A stretch of 40,174 nucleotides of DNA from NCBI GenBank assembly GCA_036517695.1, contig DATDVC010000044.1, positions 1 through 40,174 of the forward strand. The letters run 5' to 3'. Shown here piece by piece: positions 8,493 through 40,174 of this stretch (position 1 is its first letter; each line of letters opens with the position of its first letter). Both the position numbers and the translations under genes were made by a program. The notes under the pieces were generated by a model, which saw nothing but the letters and a program-made list of their open reading frames with translations, was not told the DNA's origin and made no database searches. This DNA comes from Minisyncoccota bacterium. GTDB lineage: Bacteria > Patescibacteriota > Minisyncoccia > Phycocordibacterales > WO2-35-19.

Positions 8493-8524
8493 CTTTTTGT
8501 TGTAATTCGCATGATTTTCGTATG
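8484..8524 (+). repeat. copy 3 of the ~40-bp repeat, ending in the ftsW start codon
   Basis: ttttcgtagctttttgttgtaattcgcatgattttcgtATG. Confidence 0.75.
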
Positions 8525-9622
8525 AAAAAGATTGGAAAAATAAGCCGGCCGTTTTTGTTCTGGACTATCGCGCTCGTGGTAGCCGGCTTTTTTATTTTTA
8601 TGTCTGCTTCACTCGGTGAACTAGCCAGGAATGAAGTCAAATTTTCTAGCGTGGCATTCAACCAAGTTTTTTTTGGCTTATTCTTGGGATCTATCGCATG
8701 CATTTTCTTCGCCCGCATCGACTACCATATTTGGAAAAAATGGGCTTTTGTAGCTTTCGTGGGTTCTATAATCCTCACTCTTTTGGTTTTCGTGCCCAAA
8801 ATCGGTCTTGAACACGGTGGCGCAAAAAGATGGATTGATCTTGGTTTTATAACGTTCCAACCCTCTGAAATTTTGAAGGTTGCTTTTGTGGCATATTTCG
8901 CCGCATGGCTTTCTGGCATAAAAAAGAAGGTTGAGACTTTTTCCTGGGGTCTTGTGCCTTTTTTGGTTTTTCTTGTCTTGTTGGGCGGGATACTCTTATC
9001 TCAACCAGATACTGACACCTTTGCTGTTATTATGTTTGCGGCTTTGGGCATGTATTTTGCCTCCGGCGCGAAGTGGAGACATATATTTGCCATAATGATC
9101 GCCGGAGCAGGAGTATTGGCGCTTCTGGCCTTTACCAGACCATATGTAATGCAAAGAATCCAATCAATGCTCGACCCCGGCTCCAATCACCAAACCTCGA
9201 GTTATCAGTTAAATCAATCTCTCATAGCGGTTGGATCTGGCAGAATATGGGGCAGGGGATTCGGACAAAGTATCCAAAAATTTGCCTACTTGCCAGAACC
9301 GATAGGTGACTCGGTTTTTGCCGTAGCCGCGGAAGAATTCGGATTTGTGGGAACTTTCACACTCATAGCCATTTTTGTAATGTTTGGACTTGAAGGCCTC
9401 AAAATATCAGCTCGAGCAAACGATGATTTTGGTAGACTGTTTTCAATGGGAATTGTTATACTTATAGTATCCCAGGCAATGATCAACATTGGCGGTATAA
9501 CAGGCGTGCTCCCTCTGACCGGGATCCCCCTGCCATTTGTCAGTCATGGCGGGACAGCCCTTTTTATAAACCTAATCGAAGTCGGAATCATTATGAATAT
9601 TTCAAGGAGCAGTAAGAAATAA
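8522..9622 (+). CDS. ftsW: SEDS-family peptidoglycan glycosyltransferase FtsW/RodA
   Basis: 366-aa polytopic protein. Conserved block LPEPIGDSVFAVAAEEFGFVG and C-terminal PLPFVSHGGTA. Located between mraY and murG. Confidence 0.9.
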   Translation: MKKIGKISRPFLFWTIALVVAGFFIFMSASLGELARNEVKFSSVAFNQVFFGLFLGSIACIFFARIDYHIWKKWAFVAFVGSIILTLLVFVPKIGLEHGGAKRWIDLGFITFQPSEILKVAFVAYFAAWLSGIKKKVETFSWGLVPFLVFLVLLGGILLSQPDTDTFAVIMFAALGMYFASGAKWRHIFAIMIAGAGVLALLAFTRPYVMQRIQSMLDPGSNHQTSSYQLNQSLIAVGSGRIWGRGFGQSIQKFAYLPEPIGDSVFAVAAEEFGFVGTFTLIAIFVMFGLEGLKISARANDDFGRLFSMGIVILIVSQAMINIGGITGVLPLTGIPLPFVSHGGTALFINLIEVGIIMNISRSSKK

Positions 9623-9623
9623 A

Positions 9624-10757
9624 ATGAAAATAGTTTTTACAGGAGGAGGTACAGGTGGGCACTTTTACCCCATAATCGCGATAGCCGAATCAATCAAAAA
9701 AATTGTAACGGAGAAAAAATTGGTCGATTTGGATTTATTTTTCTTCGGACCAACACCATACAACCAGGGTATCCTTTATGACCACAATATAGAATACAAA
9801 AAGGTTGTTGCCGGAAAAATGCGCAGATATTTTTCGATATTAAACTTCATCGATTTGTTTAAAACCGGCTTTGGATCTTTGGGGGCTTTATTCAAACTTT
9901 TTGACGTATTCCCAGATGTAGTTTTTAGCAAAGGAGGTTTCGGCAGTTTCCCCACGGTGCTCGCCGCGCGCATCTTGCGCATACCCGTAGTTCTGCATGA
10001 ATCAGACTCTGCCCCGGGAAGAGTGAATAAATGGACGGGCAAATTTGCCACCCGAATAGCTCTCTCTTACAAAGAAGCCGCAGAATATTTTGACCCGCAA
10101 AAAGTGGCTTTCACTGGGCAACCTATTCTAGAAGACAAGCTCAACCGTCTTACCACCAACGCATTTGAATTTTTCGAGTTGGACAAAAGCGTCCCTGTAA
10201 TATTCATAATGGGTGGATCACAAGGAGCAGAAACAATAAACAATGCCGTACTTGACTCTCTACCCGGCTTAGTGAAAAGCTACCAAATACTTCACCAGAC
10301 CGGCGCGGCCCATTTAGAAGTGATGAAAGAGTCAGCATCCGCGATACTTCTCGGTAATGAAAATAAAAGCCGATACAGACCATTTGCATACATGAACAGC
10401 TTCGAGATGCGCATGGCAGCAGGAGCGTCTTCACTTGTGATCAGCAGGGCCGGCTCGACTATATTTGAGATAGCTTCATGGGAAGTGCCTTCGATCATTA
10501 TTCCCATAGAGGACTCCAATGAAAATCACCAGGTCAAAAACGCGTTTGCCTATGCCCACTCCGGAGCTTGTAGCGTGCTTCAGGAAGAAAATTTGAAGAC
10601 GCACATTTTGTTGGCAGAGATTAACAGGGTTTTGGGCAGTGAAGAAATTATGCAACGCATGCGCGAAGGCGCAAAAAACTTCTTCAAACCCGGCGCCGCC
10701 GACCAAATCGCCAAAGAACTTGTAGCAATTGCGCTGTCACACCAGAAATTAGACTAG
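9624..10757 (+). CDS. murG: UDP-N-acetylglucosamine--N-acetylmuramyl-(pentapeptide) pyrophosphoryl-undecaprenol GlcNAc transferase
   Basis: 377 aa. N-terminal GGGTGGHFYP, central GGSQGA, C-terminal SRAGSTIFE. Confidence 0.92.
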   Translation: MKIVFTGGGTGGHFYPIIAIAESIKKIVTEKKLVDLDLFFFGPTPYNQGILYDHNIEYKKVVAGKMRRYFSILNFIDLFKTGFGSLGALFKLFDVFPDVVFSKGGFGSFPTVLAARILRIPVVLHESDSAPGRVNKWTGKFATRIALSYKEAAEYFDPQKVAFTGQPILEDKLNRLTTNAFEFFELDKSVPVIFIMGGSQGAETINNAVLDSLPGLVKSYQILHQTGAAHLEVMKESASAILLGNENKSRYRPFAYMNSFEMRMAAGASSLVISRAGSTIFEIASWEVPSIIIPIEDSNENHQVKNAFAYAHSGACSVLQEENLKTHILLAEINRVLGSEEIMQRMREGAKNFFKPGAADQIAKELVAIALSHQKLD

Positions 10758-10797
10758 TTTTACTCTTGCAACGCAAGGGCTGGGTAAAATAAGATTT

Positions 10798-10806
10798 TGC
10801 TATAAT
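10798..10806 (+). promoter_or_regulatory. extended -10 box (TGcTATAAT) 8 nt before the gltX ATG
   Basis: tgcTATAAT at 10798-10806 and ATG at 10815. There is no SD and the predicted leader is 0-2 nt. Confidence 0.35.
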
Positions 10807-10814
10807 TTTTAAGT

Positions 10815-12194
10815 ATGGAAAAAAAAGACATTGTCATTGTACGATTTCCGCCAAGCCCTACGGGATTTTTGCAAATGGGCAACGTGCGGACGCTTATCTA
10901 TAATTATCTCTTTGCAAAGAAACATGGTGGCAAGTTTTTGGTGCGTATAGAAGACACAGACAAAGTTCGATCAACAAAGGAATACGAGGATGCGATTTTT
11001 AGCGATTTGGAATGGCTCGGGCTCGATTATGACAACAAGCAAGAAGTTTGGAGATCTTCGGAAAGAAACGATGTTTACAAAAGCAAAATCCAAGAACTCT
11101 TAAAAAATGGTTCGGCTTATATTTCAGAGGAAACAGAAGGTGAAAACAAGGAAGTGGTTAGATTTAAAAATCCTGGTGGTAAGATAAAATTCCACGATCT
11201 CATCCGGGGAGATATAGAGATAGATGTGAATGATCTGGGAGACTTCATAATCGCACGAAACATAAATGACCCTCTTTATCACTTGGCCGTCTGCATTGAC
11301 GATGTCGAAAGTGGTATCACCCACATAATCCGTGGCGATGATCATATCTCAAACACACCTCGACAAATTTTAATACTTGAGGCACTGGGTGGTAAGAGAC
11401 CCATCTATGCCCATCTGCCACTAGTCTTGGCGCCTGACAAATCAAAACTCTCTAAAAGAAAACATGGTGAAAGTGTTTCGTTAAAATATTACAAGGAGAA
11501 AGGGTACGAACCACAAGCTGTTTTAAATTTTCTTGCGCTTATTGGATGGAATCCGGGAACTGATCAGGAAATTTTTACTCTGGAAGAACTTGTGAAAGCT
11601 TTTGATCTTTCAAAGGTCCAAAAAAAGGGAGGTATCTTCAATGTGGAAAAACTTGACTGGGTAAACCGCGAACACATTCTCCATACTCCGCTCAAATCTC
11701 AAATCTCAAATCTCAAATCCGAAATAAATAAAACCAAATTCCAAAATCACCAAAAAATTTCAGATGGAGAATTTATTGAAAAGTTTTTAAAAATCATTTT
11801 GGATCGGGTTCACCGATGGGGAGAAGTGAGTGAACTTTTGGAAGCAGGGGAGTTTGATTATCTTTTCGAAACACCGGTCTTGGATCCAGAAAAGATAACT
11901 TGGAAAAATCAAACAAAAGAAGAAGCAAAAAATAATTTGGAGCAACTACTAAAAATTCTCGCCCCCTCTCCTTTGCAAGGAGAGGCCCGCCCGCCTGGAC
12001 GGCACGTCGGGCGGGGGATAAGGGGTGAGGTAGAAAAATTTGCAGAAAAAGAGGGGAAAGGAGAGACTTTGTGGCCCTTGCGCTACTCCCTATCGGGAAA
12101 GGAAAAATCTCCAGATCCATTTACCTTAATCCAAATCCTCGGCAAGCAAGAGACCATTGATCGAATCCAAAACGCCATTGAAACTTTGAAATGA
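10815..12194 (+). CDS. gltX: glutamyl-tRNA synthetase (atypical HIGH motif, two internal repeat insertions)
   Basis: 459 aa. RFPPSPTGFLQMGNVRT, HLAVCIDDVESGITHIIRGDDHISNTPRQ, and KLSKRK as the KMSKS motif. Confidence 0.9.
   Translation: MEKKDIVIVRFPPSPTGFLQMGNVRTLIYNYLFAKKHGGKFLVRIEDTDKVRSTKEYEDAIFSDLEWLGLDYDNKQEVWRSSERNDVYKSKIQELLKNGSAYISEETEGENKEVVRFKNPGGKIKFHDLIRGDIEIDVNDLGDFIIARNINDPLYHLAVCIDDVESGITHIIRGDDHISNTPRQILILEALGGKRPIYAHLPLVLAPDKSKLSKRKHGESVSLKYYKEKGYEPQAVLNFLALIGWNPGTDQEIFTLEELVKAFDLSKVQKKGGIFNVEKLDWVNREHILHTPLKSQISNLKSEINKTKFQNHQKISDGEFIEKFLKIILDRVHRWGEVSELLEAGEFDYLFETPVLDPEKITWKNQTKEEAKNNLEQLLKILAPSPLQGEARPPGRHVGRGIRGEVEKFAEKEGKGETLWPLRYSLSGKEKSPDPFTLIQILGKQETIDRIQNAIETLK
11691..11718 (+). 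repeat. (ctcaaat)x4 heptanucleotide tandem repeat inside gltX
   Basis: Four perfect 7-bp units, encoding LKSQISNLK. Confidence 0.9.
11961..12032 (+). repeat. GC-rich double-hairpin element inserted in frame in gltX
   Basis: cctctcctt/aaggagagg hairpin, cccgcccg/cgggcggg hairpin, and a terminal ggggtgaggt. Much more GC-rich than the flanking sequence by eye. Translated as PSPLQGEARPPGRHVGRGIRGEV. Confidence 0.7.
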
Positions 12195-13471
12195 AAACGA
12201 GTATGTATATAAAATTTAAATTATATTTGGGGCTGTTGATTCTTTGTTCCATCGTGACTCTACCTTACATTACGCATTCTCAATCTGCAGGAGAATTGCA
12301 AGACAAAATAGATTCTCATAACGATAAGATTAAAAAGCTGGAGGAAGACATGAAGGCCTACGAAAAACAAATAGAAACGGTTGGAACCGAAGCAAAAACT
12401 CTGCAAAACGCCATCAAAACTCTAGACATCAGCAAGCAAAAAATAAGCACTGAAATCAAAAAAACCCAAACTGGGATTGAAAAAACAAACTTGTCGATAG
12501 AACAACTGGGTAGCGAAATTGGCAACATAGAGCAAAAGATAGAGTCCAATATTGAGATCATTGAAAAAGCCATAAGAAACATGAATCAAAATGATGACAA
12601 AACGCTTCTCGAAAGCTTCCTCGAGAGCAAGAGTTTGGCGGAAGTTTTGGATGAATATGAGTCGGTAAGTCAGTTCCAACAAAAGATACGCGAACAGTCG
12701 AAAGAACTTGCCTATTATAAAGAAGATCTATCCGGCAAAAAAACTGTCGCGGAAAAAGAAAAGAAAAATCTAGTAACTCTAAAGTCAGATCTGGACGACC
12801 AGAACCAAATATTGGACATAAACAAAAAGGAAAAAAATCAGCTTCTTTCTGAAACCAAAAGCAAGGAAAGCGCTTATAAAACACTACTTGCAAGCAGACA
12901 AGCCGAAAAAGAAAAATTCGAACGCGAGCTTTTTGAATTTGAATCACAATTAAAAAAAGTGATAGACCCAAACAGCTTCCCCACCGCAGGGAAGGGAATA
13001 CTCAAATACCCTCTTGATAACATCACAGTAACCCAAGCTTTCGGCAGGACGGTCGACGCTAAAAAGCTTTACGTGTCAGGGACCCACAACGGAGTCGACT
13101 TCAGGGCTAGTCGTGGCACTCCAGTTAAAGCTTCTCTTGACGGAATCGTTGAAGGATTGGGAAATACAGACTCGCAGAAAGGTTGCTACTCTTACGGCAA
13201 ATGGGTTTTGATAAAACACCCGAATGGACTATCGACCCTTTACGCTCATCTCGATTTGATAAAAGTATCATCCGGACAAAGCGTAGAAACCGGCGAACTG
13301 TTGGGCTACAGCGGGCAAACCGGCTACGCCACAGGCCCGCACCTTCACTTTACAGTTTACGCAAGCCAAGGTGTTGAGATCCAAAGATACTCTTCAAGCA
13401 AGAATTGCAAAAATGTCGACATCCCCATAGCTGACAGCCAAGCATACCTTGACCCTATGTTATACTTCTAG
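12191..13471 (+). CDS. M23-family peptidase with an N-terminal coiled coil (EnvC-like)
   Basis: 426 aa: signal/TM segment, a long coiled coil, then LytM-type motifs HNGVDF and GPHLHF. The start overlaps the gltX stop (ATGA). Confidence 0.88.
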   Translation: MKTSMYIKFKLYLGLLILCSIVTLPYITHSQSAGELQDKIDSHNDKIKKLEEDMKAYEKQIETVGTEAKTLQNAIKTLDISKQKISTEIKKTQTGIEKTNLSIEQLGSEIGNIEQKIESNIEIIEKAIRNMNQNDDKTLLESFLESKSLAEVLDEYESVSQFQQKIREQSKELAYYKEDLSGKKTVAEKEKKNLVTLKSDLDDQNQILDINKKEKNQLLSETKSKESAYKTLLASRQAEKEKFERELFEFESQLKKVIDPNSFPTAGKGILKYPLDNITVTQAFGRTVDAKKLYVSGTHNGVDFRASRGTPVKASLDGIVEGLGNTDSQKGCYSYGKWVLIKHPNGLSTLYAHLDLIKVSSGQSVETGELLGYSGQTGYATGPHLHFTVYASQGVEIQRYSSSKNCKNVDIPIADSQAYLDPMLYF

Positions 13472-27722: not shown

Positions 27723-29345
27723 CTAAAATCTTTCAGTTAACTCTTTCATATCTCGATTTTTAGATAGTACAAGAAAAACAGCCCCAAAGACAATACCCAA
27801 AAGACCGGCAAAAAAACCGTGGCCAAATACTCCTATAAATGTATCCAGATTGAACAGGCCGTCCATGAGCCACAAACCAAAATAAGAGCCGAGAGCGACA
27901 ATCGCGGCGGTTACACCACCTGCCATGACGGAAGAACTGATAACTCGCCAAACCTTTTGAACCAATTGGCCGTCAAGCGCCAAAAAAAGTATGGTGGCGC
28001 TAACAAGAGCGCCGAAAGAGTAAGATAGAGGTAAAAGCAATATACCAACATGCAAATCTTCTACGTTTAAAACAGTGGCCATAATTTCAAGCAGACCACG
28101 GAAAAAATCAGGCGAGCCGATTATTAAAAGAGCTGTCGCAACTGAAACAATGCCACCAATCAAATTACCCAGAAGTGGCCACTTGGTTTTACCAAGAGCA
28201 TAGTGACTGCGAGAGAGGAAAAGTTGAATACTTTGAAAAACAGTTGAAGCTACAAAAATCGCAAGACAGGCCGCAACCAATCTGGTAGCTGACCAGTCAA
28301 AAGCTCCCGAACCAAGAACAACTCTCACAATATGAGCGCGGAGCACAATGACCAGAGCCGTAAAAGGCAACGACCAGAAAATTATTTGGCGCAGACCGTC
28401 GCTTATCCTTTCAACAATTTCATTTGTGTCTTTTTTGGCGGCCGATATGGACAAAGCAGGAAAGGCCGCCAGACTAAAACTTACACCGATTAAAGATAGG
28501 GGCACAGACTGCAGATTAAGGGCCAGATTAAAAACAGTAATAGAGCCAGGTGATATTTTAGAAGCAAGAGCTACAAAAAAGAAGCCGACAAAACTGACCA
28601 CCGAAAGAGCAAGGGTGCGTGGCACAGAAAGAAGAGCCGTCTCCCTAACCACCGGCCAATTTATTTTTCTGGTAAATTTTGGCCTAATGGAGGAACTTAA
28701 AACAAATATTGCCTGCAAAGAAAAGTGGAGTAAAGCGCCAAACATGACACCGATCACCACTCCAGTGACACCAAGCGGATTAACCAAAAAAACGATACCC
28801 ACAATAATACCCAAATTATACAGAAGCGGACTTAGTGAGTATAAGATAAACCTCTTTTCATACTGAACGATACTGCCAAAAAAATTTGAAAAGCCCAAAA
28901 AAAACGGTGAGACAAGCAATAGTCTAGAAAGAAAAATTGTCTCTGCTCGAGCTGAAGCTGAAAACCCGGTAAAAAAGGTATTGATCACGAGTGGCATCGA
29001 AAACCAAGCCAGGATACAAAAAAAGCTGATTGCGATTGAAAAAACTGTAAATATCGATTCAGCAGTTTCTTTTAGTCTTTTCGGTTCTTGTTCCTGCCTT
29101 GCAAAAAGCGGGATCAGAGCCGATATGGAAACCAGCGAAGCCACTGTCACAAAAATAAGATCCGGCACTTTGAAGGCCGCATAATAAATATCAAGCTCCA
29201 CACCTGTTCCAAAATGATGGGCAAGCAAGCGATCACGCAAAAGAGCTAAAATTTGGGAAAATAAGGCAAATACAGAAAGCCAAAAAGCGGCTTCTCTTAG
29301 GCCGCTTATTTTGCTTGTAATCATTCTCAAGGTTTTGGCTACCAT
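27723..29345 (-). CDS. murJ: lipid II flippase MurJ
   Basis: 540-aa, ~14-TM MOP-superfamily protein. The N-terminus ...LLALLRDRLLAHHFGTGVELDIYYAAFKVPDLIF is the typical MurJ signature. Confidence 0.88.
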   Translation of the reverse strand: MVAKTLRMITSKISGLREAAFWLSVFALFSQILALLRDRLLAHHFGTGVELDIYYAAFKVPDLIFVTVASLVSISALIPLFARQEQEPKRLKETAESIFTVFSIAISFFCILAWFSMPLVINTFFTGFSASARAETIFLSRLLLVSPFFLGFSNFFGSIVQYEKRFILYSLSPLLYNLGIIVGIVFLVNPLGVTGVVIGVMFGALLHFSLQAIFVLSSSIRPKFTRKINWPVVRETALLSVPRTLALSVVSFVGFFFVALASKISPGSITVFNLALNLQSVPLSLIGVSFSLAAFPALSISAAKKDTNEIVERISDGLRQIIFWSLPFTALVIVLRAHIVRVVLGSGAFDWSATRLVAACLAIFVASTVFQSIQLFLSRSHYALGKTKWPLLGNLIGGIVSVATALLIIGSPDFFRGLLEIMATVLNVEDLHVGILLLPLSYSFGALVSATILFLALDGQLVQKVWRVISSSVMAGGVTAAIVALGSYFGLWLMDGLFNLDTFIGVFGHGFFAGLLGIVFGAVFLVLSKNRDMKELTERF

Positions 29346-31741: not shown

Positions 31742-32233
31742 CTATTTATAATTTTCTATAGTCTTGACCAACTGACTATCGTCTCTTAAATATTCATAGA
31801 ATAAAATTTGACTTCTGTTTACATGCATGATGTCTTCCGGGCCATGCAATTCTTGCCCCAACTTTACCAAAGTAAATCCTGATCCTTGGATCGCTTCAGG
31901 AGAAAAGTCGCTGTTGGCATTTTGAAGGTAGTACACTTCTTTTAGAGTAAGTTCTTGATCATTTTTGTCTATTATTTTTCCGAAGTAAACCTGCCCATTT
32001 GAAAGAAAGACTGCGCTATAATTCAAAACCAAGTTGTTTGACTTTTTATTGATGAAATATTTTGAACCGATGATCGCGCCGTAAAGCAAGGCAAGGACTA
32101 CTAAAACTTTGAGTAGAGTCTTTAGGAAAGAGGCAAAACCTTTTCCGCTCTTTTTAGCCACGGATCCAGAGCCAACTATTTGCTCTGGCAATTTTTCTGG
32201 ATTGGGCGGATTGTTAAAACGCATATCGTGCAT
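31742..32233 (-). CDS. hypothetical membrane-anchored protein
   Basis: 163 aa with one TM (LLKVLVVLALLYGAIIG) and an extracytoplasmic globular part. Confidence 0.5.
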   Translation of the reverse strand: MHDMRFNNPPNPEKLPEQIVGSGSVAKKSGKGFASFLKTLLKVLVVLALLYGAIIGSKYFINKKSNNLVLNYSAVFLSNGQVYFGKIIDKNDQELTLKEVYYLQNANSDFSPEAIQGSGFTLVKLGQELHGPEDIMHVNRSQILFYEYLRDDSQLVKTIENYK

Positions 32234-32250: not shown

Positions 32251-33270
32251 TCATTGCTGGCCGGCGGCTACCAAAGCTTGTAACTTCATAAGAAGCGCGA
32301 GAACCTGCTGTTGGAGTAAGAGAATTTGAGCTCTTATGGATTCTATTTGAGCCGGTGTAAGCCCGCTTGACGCATAGCCACCTCCCCCGCCTCCTCCAAG
32401 CAACTGATTTATTCTAGCTCTGGTTGACGGACCAACAAAGCCGTAGCCTGTAGAAACCGGATCACCAGAAGAGACTATCCCTTGAGCGCTTTGAAAAGCT
32501 TTGACTGCCACTTCTGTGGCTGGGCCATAGTAGCCGGTAATGTTGTCAGCTGTGGTGTAACCTTGATTGACCAAGAATTGTTGGAGAGTTTTGACGTCGT
32601 CTCCGGTGGCGCCACGAAAAAGATTGCGGATCAAACCCCCCGCCGGCGCATAAGCAGAAACAGTGCCAATAGGAGGAATATAGCCAGAGCTATTACTGAC
32701 ACTACCAGAAGAAGAGCCCCCTCCGCCGCCGCCACCCCCACCACTCGAAGCCCCGCCACCAGAACTGGTGTTATCAGAGGAAGAAGACCCTGAACCTATT
32801 GTGTAGGACCCATTAACAACTGCGCTCAAAACATCAGATCCATTTGCGGCTACATTTGAGTCGGTTGTGCTGTTCGAAGTATGGCTAAAAGTAAGGTTGG
32901 CGCTCCCCTCTGCTATGGCTTTAAAAGTTACCGTGGCGAGCACGCCGGATCCGTTGTATTTGTTGCCACCAAGCGCTACTTGAGAAAAAGTTATTCTGCC
33001 GTTAGAAGAATTGACGGTATTTGCCAAAGTCATCGGCATGAGAGAACCTGGAGTTATCTGATTTCCCTGAACCTGTAACAGCGCTGGATTATAATTTAAA
33101 TATCGCAAGTCTACCCCATCTACTTGAGACCCTTGCGTATCCAAATTTATAGTAACAGTAAAAGTGTCTCCCACGTTTACACTTTGGGAAGAAGGAGAGA
33201 CCGATAGAGTAGCCGCTGAAGCAAGTGAAGGCACAAGTAACATTCCGATTATTGCAATAACTTTTTTCAT
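32251..33270 (-). CDS. secreted cohesin-domain protein with a peptidoglycan-binding (PG_binding_1) domain
   Basis: Signal peptide. Cohesin-like module LSVSPSSQSVNVGDTFTVTINLDTQGSQVDGVDLRYLNYNPALLQV...ATVTFKAIAEGSANLTF. Gly/Ser linker. PG_binding_1 pattern GATGDDVKTLQQFLVNQGYT..ITGYYGPATEVAVKAFQSAQGI. C-terminal coiled coil. Confidence 0.72.
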   Translation of the reverse strand: MKKVIAIIGMLLVPSLASAATLSVSPSSQSVNVGDTFTVTINLDTQGSQVDGVDLRYLNYNPALLQVQGNQITPGSLMPMTLANTVNSSNGRITFSQVALGGNKYNGSGVLATVTFKAIAEGSANLTFSHTSNSTTDSNVAANGSDVLSAVVNGSYTIGSGSSSSDNTSSGGGASSGGGGGGGGGSSSGSVSNSSGYIPPIGTVSAYAPAGGLIRNLFRGATGDDVKTLQQFLVNQGYTTADNITGYYGPATEVAVKAFQSAQGIVSSGDPVSTGYGFVGPSTRARINQLLGGGGGGGYASSGLTPAQIESIRAQILLLQQQVLALLMKLQALVAAGQQ

Positions 33271-33314
33271 TTTTTTAAATTTTATAATTTAAATTACAAT
33301 TCTATAATTTTATA

Positions 33315-35195
33315 CTATTCCCCACTTTGAAGCCAATTGTTTGAAAGAAATGCGAAGTCGAGAGAGTTTACACTGCTATCTCTGTTTAGGTCTGCGAGAG
33401 CGTCAGAGGTAGACCACTTTCCGTTCATGTAGGAAAAGTCCAGCGAATTGATCAACTGATCGTCATTAAAGTCTCCTGCTGGTAACGTTGGAAAACTGAC
33501 ATCAAGAACGGTAGTATTTCTCAAATCAACACCGGACTGAATCTTTGAAAGATAACCGGAAACCACAGCTCTCATTGCCACCGTAGGCAACAAGCCGGCC
33601 GGCACATCTACGGTATGGCGACCGAGAGTGTCTGTGGTGATGCTCGCTTGATATAACTTATTGCCAAGATTTGATGGGTCAAGAAACTCTACCGTTCCTG
33701 ACACATCTCTACCACTCGACGGCGCGCCTTCCGGCACCAAAACAATTCTTCGCTGAACCGAAAGAGAGAATATCGGGGTTGTAGCTGAAACAGCGGAGCT
33801 TTGAGAAGAAACATTACCCGCGTTGTCTACGGCTGACACCCTGTAACTGTAAGCGGTATTTGCCGAAAGAGCTGTATCCAAATAAGCAGTCGAAGCGGTA
33901 GTGCCGACTTGGACGCCATCACGAAATACTCTGTAACTTGCGACACCGGAGACGGCCTGACCGCTACCCGCCGGATCAGTCGAATCATTCCAAGAAACTT
34001 GAATTTGGCTCTCGCTTGTTGGGGTCGCTGAAAGTCCCGATGGAACAGAGGGGGCGGTAGTGTCAGGAAGACTATTGGTTGTAAAAGTGCTGTCGGAAGA
34101 CATGGCCAAGTTGCCCGCCGAATCGCGAGACTTGACTCTAAAGTGATAGGTTGCGGCAGGAGAAAGACCAGAAACCGTAGCAGAATGACTTGTTAAAAGA
34201 GAAGGATTGCGAGTAGTTTGTGATCCATAAGAAGTAGTAGCGCCGTATTCCACTTGAGTATCGGACGCTTCGTTGGTGTTCCAAGAGACAGTAGCACCTG
34301 AAGTGGTAACCCCGGAAACTGCTACAGAAGAAATGGTTGGCGGGGTGGTGTCAGGAGGCGCTTGAGTAGTAAAAGTGTTATCTCCTGATGTGGAGAGATT
34401 ACCCGCCGCATCGCGAGACTTGACTCTGTAGTGATAAAGAGTGGAAGCTGAAAGACCAGACAGAGTCGCCGAGTGCGAAGTAACAAGAGAAGAGTTGAGA
34501 GCAGTCTGGCTTCCGTAAGAAGTAGTAGCGCCGTATTCCACTTGGGTATCGGACGCTTCGTTGGTATTCCAAGAAACAGTCGCACCAGAAGTGGTCACAC
34601 CGGAAGATGAGATAGAAGAGATGGTTGGCGGAGTGGTATCAAGAGCTACCCCAGTATAAGAGCCACTTCCTACAGAAGCTAGCAAATCCCCTCCGAGACC
34701 GGCCACATTTGAATCAGTGCCACTTCCCAAGCTAAAATCAAAAGTAGCGCTTGAAGATCCGGCAGATATTGCTCTGAAAGTAACAGTGGCTACCGTTCCG
34801 GAACCGCTGTAAGTGGAGCCAGGGGTTGCAATTTGAGAAAATTGGATGGTGCCAGCCGTATTGTCTATGTTGTTGATTATTGTAAGAGCCATGAGACTGC
34901 CTGGAGAAATTTGCACGCCAGAGGTTCCCGCGTCAGCGTCTACGACCTGCAAAACGGCCGGATTGAAACGGAGCTTGTTCACATCAACTCCGTAAGCGGA
35001 TTGGCCTCCGGTATTTAAGAGAATATTAACTGTAAAAGTATTATTTACGTTTACCGAAGTCGACGATGGAGAAAGCGAGAGCACGGCCGATGGAGTGACT
35101 TGAGCCACTTGGGCACTCGGCAAACCAGAGACCGAAGTCTGAAGCGCTATTAAAATTGCGGTTAAAGACGAAACTATTTGTTGTAATGTTTGCAT
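33315..35195 (-). CDS. cohesin - 3x fibronectin type III - dockerin surface protein
   Basis: 626 aa. An N-terminal cohesin-like module paralogous to the one in 32251..33270. Two ~90%-identical FN3 repeats plus a third FN3, then an Ig/CarboxypepD_reg-like module. C-terminal dockerin duplicated F-hand: GDFNDDQLINSLDFSYM...ADLNRDSSVNSLDFAFL. Confidence 0.75.
   Translation of the reverse strand: MQTLQQIVSSLTAILIALQTSVSGLPSAQVAQVTPSAVLSLSPSSTSVNVNNTFTVNILLNTGGQSAYGVDVNKLRFNPAVLQVVDADAGTSGVQISPGSLMALTIINNIDNTAGTIQFSQIATPGSTYSGSGTVATVTFRAISAGSSSATFDFSLGSGTDSNVAGLGGDLLASVGSGSYTGVALDTTPPTISSISSSGVTTSGATVSWNTNEASDTQVEYGATTSYGSQTALNSSLVTSHSATLSGLSASTLYHYRVKSRDAAGNLSTSGDNTFTTQAPPDTTPPTISSVAVSGVTTSGATVSWNTNEASDTQVEYGATTSYGSQTTRNPSLLTSHSATVSGLSPAATYHFRVKSRDSAGNLAMSSDSTFTTNSLPDTTAPSVPSGLSATPTSESQIQVSWNDSTDPAGSGQAVSGVASYRVFRDGVQVGTTASTAYLDTALSANTAYSYRVSAVDNAGNVSSQSSAVSATTPIFSLSVQRRIVLVPEGAPSSGRDVSGTVEFLDPSNLGNKLYQASITTDTLGRHTVDVPAGLLPTVAMRAVVSGYLSKIQSGVDLRNTTVLDVSFPTLPAGDFNDDQLINSLDFSYMNGKWSTSDALADLNRDSSVNSLDFAFLSNNWLQSGE
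34065..34640 (-). repeat. tandem duplication of a 288-bp FN3-coding unit
   Basis: Residues 186-281 and 282-377 (DTTPPTISS...VSWNTNEASDTQVEYGATTSYGSQT...) are near-identical. The DNA is roughly 90% identical over the aligned stretches. Confidence 0.85.
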
Positions 35196-35271
35196 ATAGA
35201 CTATTATACCCTCTCAACAGAGGAGTAAATAGACGTGTTGTGGAAAGCTAAGAAGAAGGTCTGGAAGGGAG

Positions 35272-35946
35272 TTACAAATCCAATAATTTGCGAGTTAAGA
35301 TTGGCACCTCTTTTAGAAAATAATCTTTCACTTCTTGCCAAGTCACAGAAAAATTTATATTTGGCATTGGGTCCTCATCAGCATCAGGAAAATAAGTGAG
35401 ACTTTTAAGAATGTGGTGTAGATTGTGATTAGTTTGAGGATACTGATCATTTATTTTAAGAATAACTTGCTCAAGAGATTCTATATTGCGCACATACCAA
35501 TACAAATCTACAAAGTCGCGCTTCTTGCCTCTCTGACTCAACGCAATAATTTTCATAACGGCAACATCTTTTGTTTGCAAAACTTTGACTGAACCATATG
35601 GTAAAAATTTTTCTTTAGGAAGAAAAAAGGGGTACCCTATAAAACTCACTTTTGCTCCCAGTAACTTGCCATACACAGTTGCCTCTCTGGTAAAATCAAG
35701 CTCCCATTCAACATCTTTAAAATGAGTAATTAGGATATCGGTAGAAAAATCAAGTGTGGGTATGAAAAAATCCAAATCAACACTGCTTCTATGGCCAACT
35801 TGTAAAGCAAGAGCGGTACCACCAGCTAGATACCAATCTGATTCCTCAAGCCATTTTTGAGTAGACAAAAAATCCAAAGCTTTGTGGGTGCTTTTGGGCA
35901 AAATTTCTGTATGCCAGATTATACTGTTTTTAGTAGTTGGTTCCAC
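35272..35946 (-). CDS. nucleotidyltransferase AbiEii/AbiGii-family toxin
   Basis: 224 aa. ...YLAGGTALALQVGHRSSVDLDFF... and ...KRDFVDLYW... are the conserved AbiEii (DUF1814) blocks. Confidence 0.8.
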   Translation of the reverse strand: MEPTTKNSIIWHTEILPKSTHKALDFLSTQKWLEESDWYLAGGTALALQVGHRSSVDLDFFIPTLDFSTDILITHFKDVEWELDFTREATVYGKLLGAKVSFIGYPFFLPKEKFLPYGSVKVLQTKDVAVMKIIALSQRGKKRDFVDLYWYVRNIESLEQVILKINDQYPQTNHNLHHILKSLTYFPDADEDPMPNINFSVTWQEVKDYFLKEVPILTRKLLDL

Positions 35947-36173
35947 AGGTTTTTAGTAAAAGGAAAAATTACCCTAGAAACTTTTATGGTATCCGAGATT
36001 AATTCTTTCGGATAATAGTTCCACATCCACTTAACCTCATTATCATAACCATAATCTAATATCCTCTCGATAATATATTTAGCATGTTTCTCCGGATCAA
36101 TCGTCTTTGGATCCACATCCCAAAAGAGCTCTGGTCTAAATTTAATTAAATCAGTTTTTTCTCCCTTTTTCAT
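35919..36173 (-). CDS. small partner protein of AbiEii (putative non-canonical antitoxin)
   Basis: 84 aa with an LFWDVDPKTID...KYIIERILDYG motif. It overlaps the AbiEii start by 28 nt, which suggests translational coupling. No wHTH of the usual AbiEi size is present. Confidence 0.55.
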   Translation of the reverse strand: MKKGEKTDLIKFRPELFWDVDPKTIDPEKHAKYIIERILDYGYDNEVKWMWNYYPKELISDTIKVSRVIFPFTKNLWNQLLKTV

Positions 36174-36216
36174 GCTCCTATTGTAACATATTTGAGCAAT
36201 TTTTGCTCGCCTAAAC

Positions 36217-36275
36217 CGACCAATTCTGCACCATTATGACATAGCCAAAGACCTGACATTTAAATTAGCGGTGGT
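36217..36275. repeat. copy A of a ~50-bp element found 3' of the fic and hicA genes
   Basis: cgacCAATTCTGCAcCAttATGaCATAGCcAAaga...TTTAA...cGGTgG aligns with 37305-37352. Confidence 0.65.
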
Positions 36276-36301
36276 TTGGACTCGTTGGCCGAGATAGTAA
36301 T

Positions 36302-37228
36302 TTATAAATTCCTCTCAATTATTTCATATCCAGAATTGATGGCATCGCAAACAAAATCTTCCAAGAGAGACAAATCATCCTCTATTTGAGCTTTATTGAG
36401 ATAGGTGTAATACAATCTCTTTTTTTCCTGAAGGATTATGACTGGAGCCAGATTCGCTTTTATAGACATAGCCTGCATTAGAAGCCTGCTCACTCTGCCA
36501 TTACCGTCCCCAAACGGATGTATTTTTTCAAACTGGCTGTGAATGTCGGCAATGTGTTTTATCATATTGCTGTTTTTTTGATTTATTTTTCTGATCAGTT
36601 TTTTCATGAGAGCGCCAATTTTTGCAAAATTTGCAGTCGGCACATAAGTGCCCATAATCCTTACCCCATGATTTCTGTAATTGCCCGCATCAGAGCGAAT
36701 GGAGTTAAGTAAAATTCCGTGGAGCTTCAAAATAAATTTCTCGCTTAGAGGTTTTTTGTCGACTAAATGTCTCATTAAGTATTCTAGTGCCGCTTGATGA
36801 TTTTTGGCTTCTAATTGTTCTACCAAACTTTTATTTGGCAAGGCAGTATTATGAAAAATAACGGCTGCGGTGTCATCTTTTGAAAGAGTGCTACCTTCAA
36901 TGCTGTTGGTATTGTAAGTAAGAGAAAGATAAAATTGGTCCCGAATATCCGGATTATCTATAATCTCTTTCAATATATTTTTGTGTGATTTTCGCTTGGT
37001 AAGAATTATAACTCTTTTGGCCTCCAAAACATTTTCTGGAATTATTTTTTCTCCCGAATATTCTTTGTAAAGCTCGTCAATCTTAAGAAGCGCACTTTTC
37101 CTGGGTGTAGCCTTTTCGTTAATCCAACGATTAAGAGCGACAAAAGTCACTCCCAAGCGAGTTGCGAGCTTTGCCTGATTTAAACCAGAAAGCTTCAGAA
37201 TAAATTGCAATTTTTCTTTTGTGGTCAT
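36302..37228 (-). CDS. Fic-family protein with an N-terminal HTH domain
   Basis: Fic motif HPFGDGNGRVSRLL, putative inhibitory motif TNSIEG ([ST]xxxE[GN]), and N-terminal HTH LSGLNQAKLATRLGVTFVALNRWINE. Confidence 0.88.
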   Translation of the reverse strand: MTTKEKLQFILKLSGLNQAKLATRLGVTFVALNRWINEKATPRKSALLKIDELYKEYSGEKIIPENVLEAKRVIILTKRKSHKNILKEIIDNPDIRDQFYLSLTYNTNSIEGSTLSKDDTAAVIFHNTALPNKSLVEQLEAKNHQAALEYLMRHLVDKKPLSEKFILKLHGILLNSIRSDAGNYRNHGVRIMGTYVPTANFAKIGALMKKLIRKINQKNSNMIKHIADIHSQFEKIHPFGDGNGRVSRLLMQAMSIKANLAPVIILQEKKRLYYTYLNKAQIEDDLSLLEDFVCDAINSGYEIIERNL

Positions 37229-37304
37229 GGATCTTATGATATCAAACTATATATAGTTAGTCAATATTTCATATTCTTATATAGTTTTAATTGGGTTTTT
37301 ACAG

Positions 37305-37352
37305 ACTCCAATTCTGCATCAGAATGGCATAGCTAAGAGAATTTAACGGTAG
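37305..37352. repeat. copy B of the ~50-bp element
   Basis: gactCCAATTCTGCAtCAgaATGgCATAGCtAAgagaaTTTAAcGGTaG, containing the hairpin ccaattctg-cat-cagaatgg. Confidence 0.65.
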
Positions 37353-37366
37353 AATCGCGATTGACG

Positions 37367-37591
37367 TCACAAAAGCTTCCTGAACTCCTCTTCAGAAATT
37401 TTAGCTTGTTTCAAAATTTTCTTGAGAAGACCACGGCCAATGTCTCCAGAATGGATCGGGATTGAAGTCTGCAAGTTTTCTGCCTCATTTACCAAGATCA
37501 AATGGCTTCCAATTTGATTATATTCTTCAAATCCTGCTCGTTTTAGAGCAGAGATAACTTTCCTATAATTTACTTGTGGCAGGCGACTCAT
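37367..37591 (-). CDS. hicA: type II toxin HicA
   Basis: 74 aa. VISALKRAGFEEYNQIGSHLIL...IPIHSGDIGRGLLKKILKQAKISEEEF fits the HicA/YcfA pattern (GSH, H..k.i..g.l..Ilkq.gi). Confidence 0.85.
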   Translation of the reverse strand: MSRLPQVNYRKVISALKRAGFEEYNQIGSHLILVNEAENLQTSIPIHSGDIGRGLLKKILKQAKISEEEFRKLL

Positions 37592-37836
37592 GCCAAAACT
37601 TGTGGAGAAATGATACTTACAGAAAATGGACTTGTTTTAGAATTATCAACTGGTACATCTTCCCCTCTTGTAGCTAGCACGCTCACAAATCCAAATATGG
37701 CATCTTGTGCCATTTTTAAAGCCTCATCAAAAGTTCGTCCTTGTGTCAAACAGCCAGGGAGAGCTGGCACGGATACTACATATATTCCGTCCTCGTCTCT
37801 TTCTATTTGAATATTATAAGTTAATCGCTTTTCCAT
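37588..37836 (-). CDS. hicB: type II antitoxin HicB (UPF0150 fold)
   Basis: 82 aa. YNIQIERDEDGIYVVSVPALPGCLTQGRTFDEALKMAQDAI is the canonical HicB N-domain. There is a 4-nt overlap with hicA. Confidence 0.85.
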   Translation of the reverse strand: MEKRLTYNIQIERDEDGIYVVSVPALPGCLTQGRTFDEALKMAQDAIFGFVSVLATRGEDVPVDNSKTSPFSVSIISPQVLA

Positions 37837-37851
37837 AACATCTACACTATA

Positions 37852-40174
37852 TCACACGCTCCAATTTTGAACCATGATTACATAGTCCAGAGAGTTGACG
37901 AGACCGTCGCGATTGAGATCGTAAGTAGCATTGCTTGTATTCCAAGCGGATGTCATAAGAGAAAGGTCTATGGAGTTGACCAGTCCATCTTGATTGAAGT
38001 CACCTACTATAGGAGCGGAGTAACTTTGTAGATAATCTTCTACAGACCACCCATCTGCTCCGGAATCATAGTTGATATTCCACCAATAGTAGCCGTCAGC
38101 TGATTGTCCGCCGGATATGATTGTTCCGAGAGTAGCGAGGGATTGAGTGCCGAGGAGAGTGCCAGAGGCTGATGGGGTGGAACGGACATTTAGATTTGAT
38201 GTAGTTTGCACCCTATCCCCTGCTTTGAATTTGGTTGATGTAGGAGGAGTTACAGAACCAGTGTATTCGTAAGCACCAATATCGGGCTGGGAGTCGCGCA
38301 AACGATTATCGAGATCCACGGCAATGCCCAAGCCAGTTGCTCCGGCATTAATGGCCATACTACCAGTTTGGAGATGAAAATCCTTATTAACAGTATTTAC
38401 ATACCCCGGTGTATTGGTTTCTAAATTATTGGATGCCGTAACAACCCCCGTACCTGCATGAACAATGTAGCAACCTAAACAAAAGATATTGTTCCTGACT
38501 GTTGCCGTGGTAATTGAATTAGCACCTGACTTCCCAAAACCAAGCACCGCGTTATAAATGGTGTTGTGATAGAAAAATATATTCCGTGTACTACCGAAAC
38601 CGCCACCTCCGACACTGCCACCAATACGAGGTAGCGCAAGTAAATTGTTTGTGATTGTCCAGTTGTTGAATAAGTTGTCTGTAGTTGATTCCACCATAAA
38701 AGTTTCATCCACTTCCAAGCATGTATTGCGTGTGAAAATTAGATTTTTAGCAACGCGCAACTGCCAATCTCCAACCCAGCTTGACCCTAAATTGAAAGTT
38801 TGCCAACAATCGCTATGGGCGCCAGACGCATCGGCCAGACGATTACCATGGTAATAATTACCTTCCCACAAAATAGTATCTCCCCAAAAAACATTGTGAT
38901 CGCCATCGCCCTGACCGCGCATTCGCTCGCTTTCGTTATCAGTCAAAGTCACATTGTTAGCATAAATAAGTACTCCGTCACCAGTGCCAGTAATATAATT
39001 ACGGGAAATAATTATATGGTGTGGTAGGTCTGACGCAGACACCGGATTGCTAGGTTCAATATCTATGCCTATGCTGGGACTGCCTGGAGTAATACTACCA
39101 TCTACTACATTATCCAAAAAATCAATATCGTGACGGGCATTTCCTGAAGTCTTAAGACCTGAACTACCCCCAACCACCTTAAAACACTGGACGGTTACAT
39201 AATCAGCCACCACAATAAAACCTTGCGTTGTTGCCGCTGAATTAGGTCTTACCCCTCGTGAAAGAGGATCGTTAATAGATGTCGTAGGACAACTACTGCC
39301 AGAGTAACCCTGGTAAACAATTTTGTTTCCGACAGACCCACTGCGAGATATAGTCACAGTTTCATTATAAGTGCCAGGATAAACAATAACTGTATCTCCT
39401 GCTACGGTAGCATTAGTGGCGACCTGAATCGTTGCATATTCTTGACCGCTACCAACACAACGAATATTGGTGGCTCCACATGATACTCCTCCTACCACCT
39501 GTGTCGTTGCAGTAGCTGATGTAGATTGCGTGCTATTATTGCCTGCGGCATCATAAGCACTAACTGTATAAGAATATAAAGTTGAGGCAGAAAGTCCGAT
39601 ATCAGAGTAGCTATTTGAAATACTTGTACCAATCTGTACTCCACCTCTGTATATTTTATAACCAATAACTCCAACAATATCAGTTGAGACGGTCCAAGAG
39701 AGATTGATTTGGGAAGAAGAAATTGAGGAGGCAGAAAGATTAGTTGGAACGGAGGGAGGAGTGGTATCTGGTGGAGGTAGAGAGGTCACAGTAACAGTGA
39801 TATTTGAATTTGTTGATCCTTGAGAATTGGTAGCTGTTATGGTGTAAGTGGTAGTGACAGTCGGCGACACACTAATACTAGAACCAGAAACAGATCCGAT
39901 ACTGGAAATAGAAAGTGTGGGAGTTGGATTGCCGGAAACTAACCAAGATAGTGTCGATGAGTTACCTTGGGAAATTGAAGCAGGAGAGGCAATAAAAGAA
40001 GAGATGGATGGAGAGGTAAGAGCTGAAGAAACCCCTGGTATCAGCGAAATCGCCACAATACCACCATCTTCAAAGTTGGTATCAGTTGAAGCTTCAACTA
40101 CGATATTTCCTGAAGGAGAACCAGTTGCCCAAGCGCCATCCGCATTGCCGGCAGTACGAGCAACCTGTGTTAAT
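37852..40174 (-). CDS. large surface protein: Ig-like - FN3 - right-handed beta-helix - SH3b - dockerin (5' end outside the window)
   Basis: The frame stays open upstream of the track start (40056) to the window edge. FN3: PPDTTPPSVPTNLSASS...YKIYRGG...YSYTVSAYDAAGN. Beta-helix repeats: NVTLTDN, NLIFTRN, WTITNN, NIFFYHNTIYN, ...DIGAYEY. SH3b: FKAGDRVQTTSNLNVRSTPS...YYWWNINY. C-terminal dockerin: GDFNQDGLVNSIDLSLM...YDLNRDGLVNSLDYVIM. Confidence 0.8.
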   Translation of the reverse strand, partial: LTQVARTAGNADGAWATGSPSGNIVVEASTDTNFEDGGIVAISLIPGVSSALTSPSISSFIASPASISQGNSSTLSWLVSGNPTPTLSISSIGSVSGSSISVSPTVTTTYTITATNSQGSTNSNITVTVTSLPPPDTTPPSVPTNLSASSISSSQINLSWTVSTDIVGVIGYKIYRGGVQIGTSISNSYSDIGLSASTLYSYTVSAYDAAGNNSTQSTSATATTQVVGGVSCGATNIRCVGSGQEYATIQVATNATVAGDTVIVYPGTYNETVTISRSGSVGNKIVYQGYSGSSCPTTSINDPLSRGVRPNSAATTQGFIVVADYVTVQCFKVVGGSSGLKTSGNARHDIDFLDNVVDGSITPGSPSIGIDIEPSNPVSASDLPHHIIISRNYITGTGDGVLIYANNVTLTDNESERMRGQGDGDHNVFWGDTILWEGNYYHGNRLADASGAHSDCWQTFNLGSSWVGDWQLRVAKNLIFTRNTCLEVDETFMVESTTDNLFNNWTITNNLLALPRIGGSVGGGGFGSTRNIFFYHNTIYNAVLGFGKSGANSITTATVRNNIFCLGCYIVHAGTGVVTASNNLETNTPGYVNTVNKDFHLQTGSMAINAGATGLGIAVDLDNRLRDSQPDIGAYEYTGSVTPPTSTKFKAGDRVQTTSNLNVRSTPSASGTLLGTQSLATLGTIISGGQSADGYYWWNINYDSGADGWSVEDYLQSYSAPIVGDFNQDGLVNSIDLSLMTSAWNTSNATYDLNRDGLVNSLDYVIMVQNWSV

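Follow-up and report, generated by a model that had tools for sequence, protein, structure and literature searches.

Do neighbouring genes for cohesin- and dockerin-bearing proteins build a single assembly on the surface of an ultra-small bacterium and, if they do, is that assembly a cellulosome? The question is raised by a contig of 40,174 nt (DATDVC010000044.1, assembly GCA_036517695.1), which we analysed over its whole length and refer to as the window; it covers 40 kb of the genome. Three open reading frames (ORFs) on its minus strand encode the proteins in question, here called P1, P2 and P3. A preliminary description of the sequence had read them as wall anchor, adaptor and cargo of a genome resembling the candidate phyla radiation (CPR). 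The ORF list returns the three genes at the same coordinates (Table 1), and the CPR assignment agrees with the NCBI label of the organism, Candidatus Paceibacterota, now Minisyncoccota. To our knowledge, the ways in which CPR bacteria (Patescibacteria) attach to and exploit their hosts are largely unknown beyond a few cultured Saccharibacteria.

We propose that the locus of this Paceibacteria-type CPR bacterium encodes a non-cellulosomal cohesin–dockerin system for surface display, built from an anchor, an adaptor and a cargo, and we place the probability of this model as a whole at roughly 0.55. A narrower claim, namely a Ca-dependent cohesin–dockerin complex of these proteins at the cell surface, we consider probable, and on the strict order of anchor, adaptor and cargo we are evenly divided. 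The single domains are already public annotation, as the automatic NCBI names indicate ("cohesin domain-containing protein" for P1, "fibronectin type III domain-containing" for P2 and "dockerin type I domain-containing protein, partial" for P3), but the three-protein system as a whole is not part of that annotation.

Domain architecture of the three proteins

Both domains initially read from P1, a cohesin and a peptidoglycan-binding PG_binding_1 domain, score above the curated Pfam gathering cut-offs (GA): Cohesin matches aa 24-139 (E=4.5e-13, 50 bits, GA 24.1) and PG_binding_1 matches aa 222-269 (E=6e-13, 49.2 bits, GA 23). Searches of the PDB with the P1 sequence alone or with the family profile A1 matched PG-binding domains only and zero cohesins. 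An AlphaFold2 (AF2) model of P1, made from an alignment of 18 family members, gave a different picture of the N-terminal domain when compared with the PDB using Foldseek: the top 34 matches were all cohesins at probability 1.0, including 5lxv, 1g1k, 2vn6, 1aoh and 1ohz, with TM-scores normalised to target of 0.5-0.69. On the modelled structure and these matches, the domain is a beta-sandwich of the cohesin fold. The PG_binding_1 domain is modelled as a three-helix bundle (helices 224-235, 250-262 and 281-291) at a predicted local distance difference test score (pLDDT) of ~90, and its profile matches the PG-binding domains of the solved wall enzymes 4xxt, 1lbu and 4lpq. The PDB matches 7rum, 3bkh and 4xxt place PG_binding_1 in endolysins and other wall enzymes. 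The linker joining the two domains of P1 has no secondary structure in the model (pLDDT <50).

Neither a surface-layer homology (SLH) nor an LPXTG match was found in P1 with Pfam or NCBIfam; together with the PG_binding_1 domain, this upholds the earlier proposal that a peptidoglycan-binding module takes the place of SLH or sortase anchoring. The list of P1 modules was right as far as it went but had overlooked a conserved C-terminal helix, which AF2 places at 306-336 with a pLDDT of ~81-87 across most of its length and for which the family consensus is AQIKxLQxxVxxLLxKLQ (alignment A1). We infer from the placement of I, L and V on heptad a and d positions that this helix is coiled-coil-like; it could be an oligomerisation coiled coil or a helix lying on the membrane surface.

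P2 consists, in order, of an N-terminal hydrophobic signal, a cohesin, three fibronectin type III (FN3) domains, a beta-rich module and a dockerin. Its description as a paralogous cohesin with three FN3 spacers and a C-terminal dockerin is well founded, with Pfam matches to Cohesin (aa 42-160, E=7.2e-7, 29.9 bits, GA 24.1), fn3 (three stretches, E=4.4e-18) and Dockerin_1 (aa 573-619, E=1.5e-7, 31.9 bits, GA 22.9), and with 52% identity between the P1 and P2 cohesins (BLASTP, E=5e-45). At this identity the P2 cohesin would be expected to take the fold modelled for P1. What had escaped notice is the module of ~93 aa directly before the dockerin, which is present in all adaptors, including those with few FN3 domains or none (alignment A3). 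Five of eight members of this module gave weak Pfam matches to CarboxypepD_reg (best E=0.0029), and a profile search of the PDB returned nothing significant for it, solved X-modules included. By analogy with the X-modules that stand beside type II dockerins, it is possibly their counterpart here.

The FN3 stalk of P2 varies in length. FN3 units 1 and 2 are a 288-bp tandem duplication (34114..34645, 80% identity), and a near-identical strain (L002, 158-2326) encodes a P2 of 722 aa rather than 626 aa, in which an extra FN3 domain of 96 aa brings the number to four. Because of this additional domain, we regard stalk length as polymorphic in the species. Across P2 orthologues the number of FN3 domains ranges from none to four.

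P3 extends past the window end, and complete homologues start with a Sec signal peptide. The window end (40174) and position 1 of L001, the sole independent assembly that reaches there, are the same point within the cargo gene; this shared break is probably due to repeated Ig/FN3 DNA upstream. The FN3 domain, beta-helix and dockerin previously assigned to P3 are confirmed by Pfam and AF2, but the Ig-like module falls below threshold and the SH3b module is only probable. Dockerin_1 is matched at E=2e-9 (37.9 bits, GA 22.9), with AF2 helices following the loops at a pLDDT of 85-91, and fn3 at E=6e-6. The I-set match (E=0.02) is below the cut-off, as is that to SH3_3 (E=0.15, 12.7 bits against a GA of 27). 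The SH3b region also has PDB profile matches at E ~0.002-0.003 to 2kyb and 2kt8, which we take to be small Clostridium perfringens domain structures of bacterial SH3 type, and its AF2 pLDDT is <50. It is probably an SH3b-like module, judged from these matches, and is confined to the closest relatives. Over the three proteins, therefore, Cohesin (PF00963), PG_binding_1 (PF01471), fn3 and Dockerin_1 (PF00404) pass the curated GA, and SH3_3 (PF08239) and Beta_helix do not.

The beta-helix of P3 has no Pfam family at E<1 but matches the NCBIfam choice-of-anchor Q model (choice_anch_Q) at 31.1 bits (cut-off 25, E=2e-7), and most of its AF2 model has a pLDDT above 85-90. Foldseek matched it to 7v6i (a lacto-N-biosidase of glycoside hydrolase family GH136, 3e-8), to 1ru4 (Pel9A of polysaccharide lyase family PL9, 1.2e-7, TM-score normalised to target 0.59), and also to PL6 alginate lyases and chondroitinase B (8bwk, 1dbg). 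A homologue search with full-length P3 was dominated by FN3-repeat proteins and was repeated with the beta-helix alone; the remote homologues carry Beta_helix, DUF1565 and Pel9A-like domains (PF13229, PF07602, PF22842). Three polar residues of the beta-helix, D423, H442 and D455 (38800..38910), are conserved at 65-81% in 37 remote homologues and lie in the motifs GDGDH…NYYHGN…AHSDCW. This cluster may serve in catalysis or in binding a metal.

The closest folds of P3 thus cleave glycans, and they could be taken to mean that the locus encodes a minimal cellulosome-like complex which gathers lyases or hydrolases and digests environmental polymers as food. The conserved polar cluster and the cellulosome-like logic of adaptor plus anchor agree with this explanation, and cohesin and dockerin genes of Shapirobacterales have been read in this way (PMC9123182). 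We nevertheless think it distinctly unlikely. With one cohesin per scaffold no enzymes would be clustered, and the identity of the beta-helix to solved enzymes is 11-16%, with moderate TM-scores. The argument also extends to other species. A P1-family search of one genome per GTDB species gave 53 loci, the six-frame ORFs of which we scanned with hidden Markov models (HMMs) for cohesin, PG-binding and dockerin domains that were built for this analysis. Pfam found no glycoside hydrolase (GH), carbohydrate esterase (CE) or carbohydrate-binding module (CBM) either in P3 or among 17 related-locus cargoes. A peptidoglycan hydrolase was likewise absent from every cargo, which leaves the earlier suggestion of an attack on a host wall conjectural, and no protease family was seen in the related-locus cargoes. 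These are mostly lectin, Ig-like or uncharacterised proteins, with Laminin_G_3 (ConA-like lectins), Big_7/Big_13 Ig-like domains, InlB B-repeats and beta-helices. The initial view of a cargo without a glycoside hydrolase holds on this Pfam result and on the AF2 beta-helix, with the reservation that the SH3b part of the "beta-helix/SH3b protein" is sub-threshold.

Cohesin and dockerin classes, gene order and anchors in related loci

All four F-hand loops of the two dockerins, DFNDDQLINSLD and DLNRDSSVNSLD in P2 and DFNQDGLVNSID and DLNRDGLVNSLD in P3, follow the pattern D-x-N-x-D-x-x-x-N-S-x-D. When the Ca-coordinating Asp and Asn positions were checked on an alignment they proved to be retained throughout: ligands D1, N3, D5, N9 and D12 are intact in 4/4 loops and are near-invariant in 29 related dockerins. 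The two dockerins have these loop residues in common, as well as S-[LI] at positions 10-11.

Outside the loops, both partners fall into two classes. In a neighbour-joining (NJ) tree the cohesins form separate adaptor and anchor clades, each of which runs across species, and the dockerins of closer relatives are of an adaptor type (…FSYMNxKW…FAYLSNNWLxSGE) or a cargo type (…LSLMTSAW…YVIMVQNWTP) that differ consistently at helix surface positions 13-19. Since each clade spans species, the cohesin and dockerin duplications must be older than these species. Two conserved cohesin classes and two conserved dockerin classes fit what two distinct binding specificities would predict.

These classes also bear on a looser arrangement, in which both dockerins bind both cohesins, or the P2 dockerin binds the P2 cohesin, and the proteins form a head-to-tail polymer or promiscuous network. 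Instead of a three-tier stack there would be P2 filaments or a mesh, with P1 as the base and cargo as the cap. P2 does bear one module of each kind, the cohesins of P1 and P2 are 52% identical, the dockerins are alike in their loops and S-[LI] pair, and few cohesin residues are specific to a clade. Moreover, locus L012 (138-4418) encodes a protein of 1426 aa in which an adaptor-clade cohesin, Laminin_G_3 and a beta-helix are combined with a dockerin of cargo type; copies of it could chain together if adaptor cohesins accept cargo dockerins. Conservation of two cohesin and two dockerin clades across species, as distinct specificities predict, and the consistent class difference at dockerin positions 13-19 argue against such a network, to which we assign a small share of the probability.

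The survey of related genomes found that the three genes recur together in the same order in many Patescibacteria loci. One or more dockerin-only cargo genes, an adaptor gene with cohesin and dockerin and an anchor gene with cohesin and PG_binding_1 follow one another co-directionally, cleanly so in L007, L010, L017 and the metagenomic L061 and with variations in L011, L012, L015, L019, L024 and L060. In the loci scanned, every cohesin and dockerin ORF shares its strand with the anchor, and adaptor orthologues that join cohesin and dockerin in one protein occur in at least 10 loci. Among the loci sampled, the compact triad of cargo, adaptor and PG-binding anchor is found in Patescibacteria only. 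Locus L016 (5189-10966) has a single ORF of 1925 aa with a PcRGLX-like domain, a dockerin, FN3, a cohesin and PG_binding_1, and from this composition looks like a natural fusion of cargo and anchor; its dockerin and cohesin were found by our own HMMs and not by Pfam at E<1e-4. A metagenome scan with the cargo-type dockerin returned three close loci, the remainder being generic dockerins.

It is conceivable that the modules do not interact at all, being independent adhesin domains and Ca-stabilised tails whose genes are adjacent through the clustering of surface genes. Many non-cellulolytic genomes indeed have cohesins or dockerins without a demonstrated partner (PMC9012536). The ordered, tight and co-directional linkage in many species, the co-conservation of the cohesin and dockerin classes and the natural fusion in L016 are difficult to reconcile with this explanation, as are the archaeal non-cellulosomal pairs that, as cited in the same source, have been shown to bind (PMC9012536), and we judge it very unlikely.

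The P1-cohesin similarity search also led to clusters in Anaerolineae, ANME-1 (anaerobic methanotrophic archaea, Methanophagales) and Bathyarchaeia (L027, L030, L034-L037, L041-L044, L051 and L058), where cohesin-only, dockerin-only and cohesin-dockerin genes lie densely packed on one strand. The HMM scan found no PG_binding_1 anchor in any of them.

Anchors vary more than the other parts. Related anchors match Pfam Cohesin at E=1.7e-10 to 3.5e-8, but their attachment modules differ: anchor-clade cohesins are joined to a C-terminal transmembrane (TM) helix in L015 (7507-8142), to an N-terminal TM helix in L022-24 (L024, 1986-2627) and to an amphipathic C-terminal helix with the pattern FxxIxxxFxRIxxGFxRIFG in L011, L012 (13118-13825) and L014. 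In L019 (2882-4054) the anchor-clade cohesin is followed by repeats of ~60-80 aa (…PTVYLLxxGxKxxIxS…) without a Pfam match. We examined the best 150 of 237 strong representatives of P1 relatives, clustered at 50% identity; 66 of these 150 combine a cohesin with one or more PG-binding domains, and 6 have a cohesin and a C-terminal TM helix. Two metagenomic relatives of the P1 cohesin are larger, multi-cohesin proteins like scaffoldins, P0319 (2276 aa) with nine cohesins and a dockerin and P0345 (916 aa) with six cohesins.

A TM helix can attach a protein to the producing cell only, and the fact that anchor-clade cohesins elsewhere bear such helices is our best argument for the position of P1 as a self-anchor. 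The opposite orientation would make the complex a bridging adhesin, in which the peptidoglycan recognised by PG_binding_1, and by P3's SH3b-like module, belongs to a host bacterium and the complex is otherwise tethered or released. Endolysins and wall enzymes with PG_binding_1 attack peptidoglycan from outside, CPR bacteria often live as epibionts (PMC10633639), and the N-termini of the P2-family proteins of L011 and L012 resemble uncleaved membrane anchors, all of which would suit a bridge. In addition to the TM-helix anchors, the weak SH3b assignment and the cell's own peptidoglycan speak against it: the locus lies beside MurJ, and the window encodes a PBP5-like S11 carboxypeptidase, MraY, FtsW, MurG, an M23 peptidase and MurJ. 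As the genome encodes its own peptidoglycan synthesis, the cell has a wall for P1 to bind. We therefore see only a slim chance for the bridging arrangement.

A proposed display system and its relation to known assemblies

The anchor–adaptor–cargo model starts from domains, folds, Ca ligands, gene order and class conservation that are established, and from these we infer module binding, the pairing of dockerins with cohesins, the attachment of P1 to the wall of the producing cell and the function of the whole. After secretion, P1 would stay on the peptidoglycan of the producing cell through non-covalent binding by PG_binding_1, its C-terminal helix could make it an oligomer and hence multivalent, and its Gly/Ser linker would display the single cohesin. 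P2 would bind this cohesin in a Ca-dependent manner through its adaptor-type dockerin, with the neighbouring beta module as a brace, and the FN3 stalk, with 0 to 4 units depending on strain or species, would lift a second cohesin off the wall, to a distance of ~15 nm as estimated from typical domain sizes. This second cohesin would bind cargo-type dockerins such as that of P3, whose beta-helix is of a type that binds or cuts glycans. The likely purpose would be to present swappable heads, whether lectins, adhesins or beta-helices, to glycans on the surface of a host or substrate, which they would bind or process. A role in host attachment is a tentative suggestion, somewhat less probable than not.

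The earlier reading of the three proteins as anchor, adaptor and cargo gains from module grammar, synteny, the two sets of clades and the alternative anchors, but it is set back by the fact that the three genes are not contiguous here. The cargo gene is parted from the P2 and P1 genes by a mobile-looking toxin–antitoxin (TA) island. Cargo and adaptor genes are direct neighbours in L007, L010, L011 and L061, which have no island, and we therefore regard the island as having been inserted into a cluster that was originally contiguous. Several further points weigh against our model. The cohesin–dockerin interface is a prediction from the modules, and the co-conserved classes are compatible with more than one pairing of dockerins and cohesins. 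The 12 clade-specific cohesin residues have no clear mapping to the dockerin-binding face, and the split between dockerin types is blurred in the distant loci L015, L017 and L019. In L008 the anchor adjoins a cargo-type dockerin gene with no adaptor within view, and direct docking of cargo onto anchor is therefore conceivable. The N-terminus of P2 is an atypical signal, with a hydrophobic core but without positive charge, and the identity of the P3 beta-helix to solved enzymes is low. Finally, other cohesin or dockerin genes may lie outside the 40-kb window, which limits the census.

The clostridial cellulosomes of Acetivibrio cellulolyticus and Pseudobacteroides cellulosolvens (ScaA/ScaB/ScaC) and of Clostridium thermocellum (CipA, OlpB/SdbA) share Pfam families with this locus. 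The likeness extends to an adaptor with both cohesin and dockerin (P2), to a separate, putatively wall-attached cohesin protein (P1), possibly to the P2 beta module, which recalls the X-Doc dyad, and to the match between the P1 model and cellulosomal cohesins. However, P1 and P2 each have a single cohesin, whereas cellulosomal scaffoldins have many; P1 would be anchored by PG_binding_1 rather than SLH repeats or sortase; there is no CBM or recognised glycoside hydrolase cargo; the cell is an ultra-small CPR cell; and P1-family cohesins are too divergent to match solved cohesins by sequence profile. A true cellulosome was considered as the primary reading and rejected for want of GH/CBM cargo and of a multi-cohesin scaffoldin. 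We call the system non-cellulosomal because we find in it no multi-cohesin scaffoldin, no GH/CBM cargo and no SLH/sortase anchoring.

We group it with the cohesin and dockerin systems of archaea and other bacteria that do not degrade cellulose, among them Archaeoglobus fulgidus and the ANME-1 and ANME-2 sets (PMC9012536). The Methanophagales, Bathyarchaeia and Anaerolineae genes of our scan are likewise clustered and co-directional. Organisation of the extracellular space or cell-cell contact has been proposed as a role of such systems (PMC9012536). The ANME cargoes are reported to be substrate-binding and S-layer proteins (PMC9012536), as opposed to the lectin, Ig-like and beta-helix cargoes found here, and unlike P1 the archaeal, Bathyarchaeia and Anaerolineae clusters have no PG_binding_1 anchor. 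A different precedent for P1 is provided by endolysins and Gram-positive surface proteins, in which PG_binding_1, LysM and SH3b modules give a non-covalent hold on peptidoglycan such as we propose. In PG-binding wall enzymes this module carries an enzyme, whereas in P1 it carries a cohesin socket, which would make it a receptor for other proteins.

Within the same superphylum, cohesin and dockerin genes of Shapirobacterales are reported to be expressed (PMC9123182), and the dockerin protein SEML1_0315 to be essential in the cultured Saccharibacterium Southlakia epibionticum (PMC10633639). We count the latter as literature context for the model. In both, these domains are tied to glycan interaction or host contact, and the passages found remain at the domain level, with no anchor/adaptor/cargo operon, PG-binding cohesin or classes (PMC9123182, PMC10633639). 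Cohesin, dockerin and Parcubacteria were not found together in our literature searches, nor was the system described under CPR, Patescibacteria or peptidoglycan-binding terms, and the literature searched gave no account of an anchor in which a cohesin is joined to a peptidoglycan-binding domain.

If the model is right, the locus is a compact candidate surface apparatus of an uncultured CPR lineage, made up of three proteins and four small binding modules. It predicts Ca-dependent binding that is sensitive to ethylenediaminetetraacetic acid (EDTA), a 2x2 pattern of specificity between cohesins and dockerins, and pull-down by peptidoglycan; recombinant fragments suffice for these predictions and no culture is needed. 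At least 66 clusters of proteins (50% identity) combine a cohesin with PG_binding, an arrangement that extends cohesin-dockerin biology. Adhesion or recognition of glycans, and not breakdown of biomass, is the function suggested by the cargoes, which advise caution against reading cohesin and dockerin matches in CPR genomes as cellulosomes. An orthogonal cohesin-dockerin pair together with a wall anchor could also serve protein display on Gram-positive-type cells.

A broader version of this idea is that Paceibacteria and their relatives share a modular "adhesosome", a conserved operon for two orthogonal cohesin–dockerin specificities with swapped anchors, a tuned stalk and exchangeable heads (lectin, adhesin or beta-helix) for recognising and processing glycans on the host surface. 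Anchor modules (PG_binding_1, TM helix or amphipathic helix) would be swapped between lineages, and the length of the FN3 stalk would be set by tandem duplication, perhaps so as to clear an S-layer. Attachment as an episymbiont, and the range of hosts, would then depend to a large part on the adhesosome. Taken jointly, we consider these claims doubtful.

Features of the locus and neighbouring genes

The features of the locus are listed in Table 1. A scan for promoters and terminators gave counts close to the shuffled expectation, and operon boundaries are not derivable from it.

Table 1. Position and basis of the features described in the text (window coordinates; aa, amino acids of the protein named).
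Feature	Position	Strand	Basis
P1 anchoring protein, 339 aa	32251..33270	-	ORF, Pfam Cohesin + PG_binding_1
P1 Sec-type signal peptide, aa 1-19, MKKVIAIIGMLLVPSLASA	33214..33270	-	Read from sequence; conserved in alignment A1
P1 cohesin domain, aa 20-160, anchor clade	32791..33213	-	Pfam, AF2 + Foldseek, NJ tree
P1 Gly/Ser-rich flexible linker, aa 161-215	32626..32790	-	Low-complexity G/S; AF2 pLDDT <50
P1 PG_binding_1 domain, aa 217-292	32395..32622	-	Pfam, PDB profile search, AF2
P1 conserved C-terminal helix, aa 305-336	32263..32358	-	AF2, family consensus
P2 adaptor protein, 626 aa	33315..35195	-	ORF, Pfam, family alignment A3
P2 cohesin, aa 36-182, adaptor clade	34650..35090	-	Pfam, BLASTP, NJ tree
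P2 FN3 stalk, three domains, aa 186-477	33765..34640	-	Pfam fn3 + Pur_ac_phosph_N
P2 beta-rich module, ~93 aa, CarboxypepD_reg-like, abuts dockerin	33486..33764	-	Conserved in adaptors
P2 dockerin, aa 571-626, adaptor type, DFNDDQLINSLD ... DLNRDSSVNSLD	33318..33485	-	Pfam Dockerin_1
P3 cargo protein, at least 773 aa	37852..40174	-	ORF, Pfam; N-terminus beyond window end
P3 Ig-like module (aa 40-135, sub-threshold) and FN3 (aa 138-225)	39499..40056	-	Pfam I-set, fn3
P3 right-handed parallel beta-helix, aa 230-640, ends ...DIGAYEY	38254..39486	-	AF2, Foldseek, NCBIfam
P3 probable SH3b-like module, aa 650-718, abuts dockerin	38020..38226	-	Sub-threshold Pfam, PDB profile
P3 dockerin, aa 722-773, cargo type, DFNQDGLVNSID ... 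DLNRDGLVNSLD	37855..38010	-	Pfam, AF2
Toxin-antitoxin/Fic island, ~2.6 kb, between cargo and adaptor genes	35272..37836	-	Pfam
AbiEii toxin + DUF6922	35272..36173	-	Pfam
HTH-Fic protein	36302..37228	-	Pfam
HicA; HicB	~37367..37591; 37588..37836	-	HicA called in L001
163-aa single-pass membrane protein, no family match, 17 nt downstream of anchor gene	31742..32233	-	Conserved
Peptidoglycan synthesis/remodelling genes	5470..13471 and 27723..29345

The TA/Fic island stands outside the cohesin-dockerin system. The genes downstream of P1, for the 163-aa protein, a membrane protein of TPR type, MurJ and LepA, are chromosomal backbone. The 163-aa protein and the TPR protein were considered as further parts of the system and rejected, as they belong to the chromosomal backbone with MurJ in L009 and L010; in L010 their homologues lie ~8 kb from the anchor.

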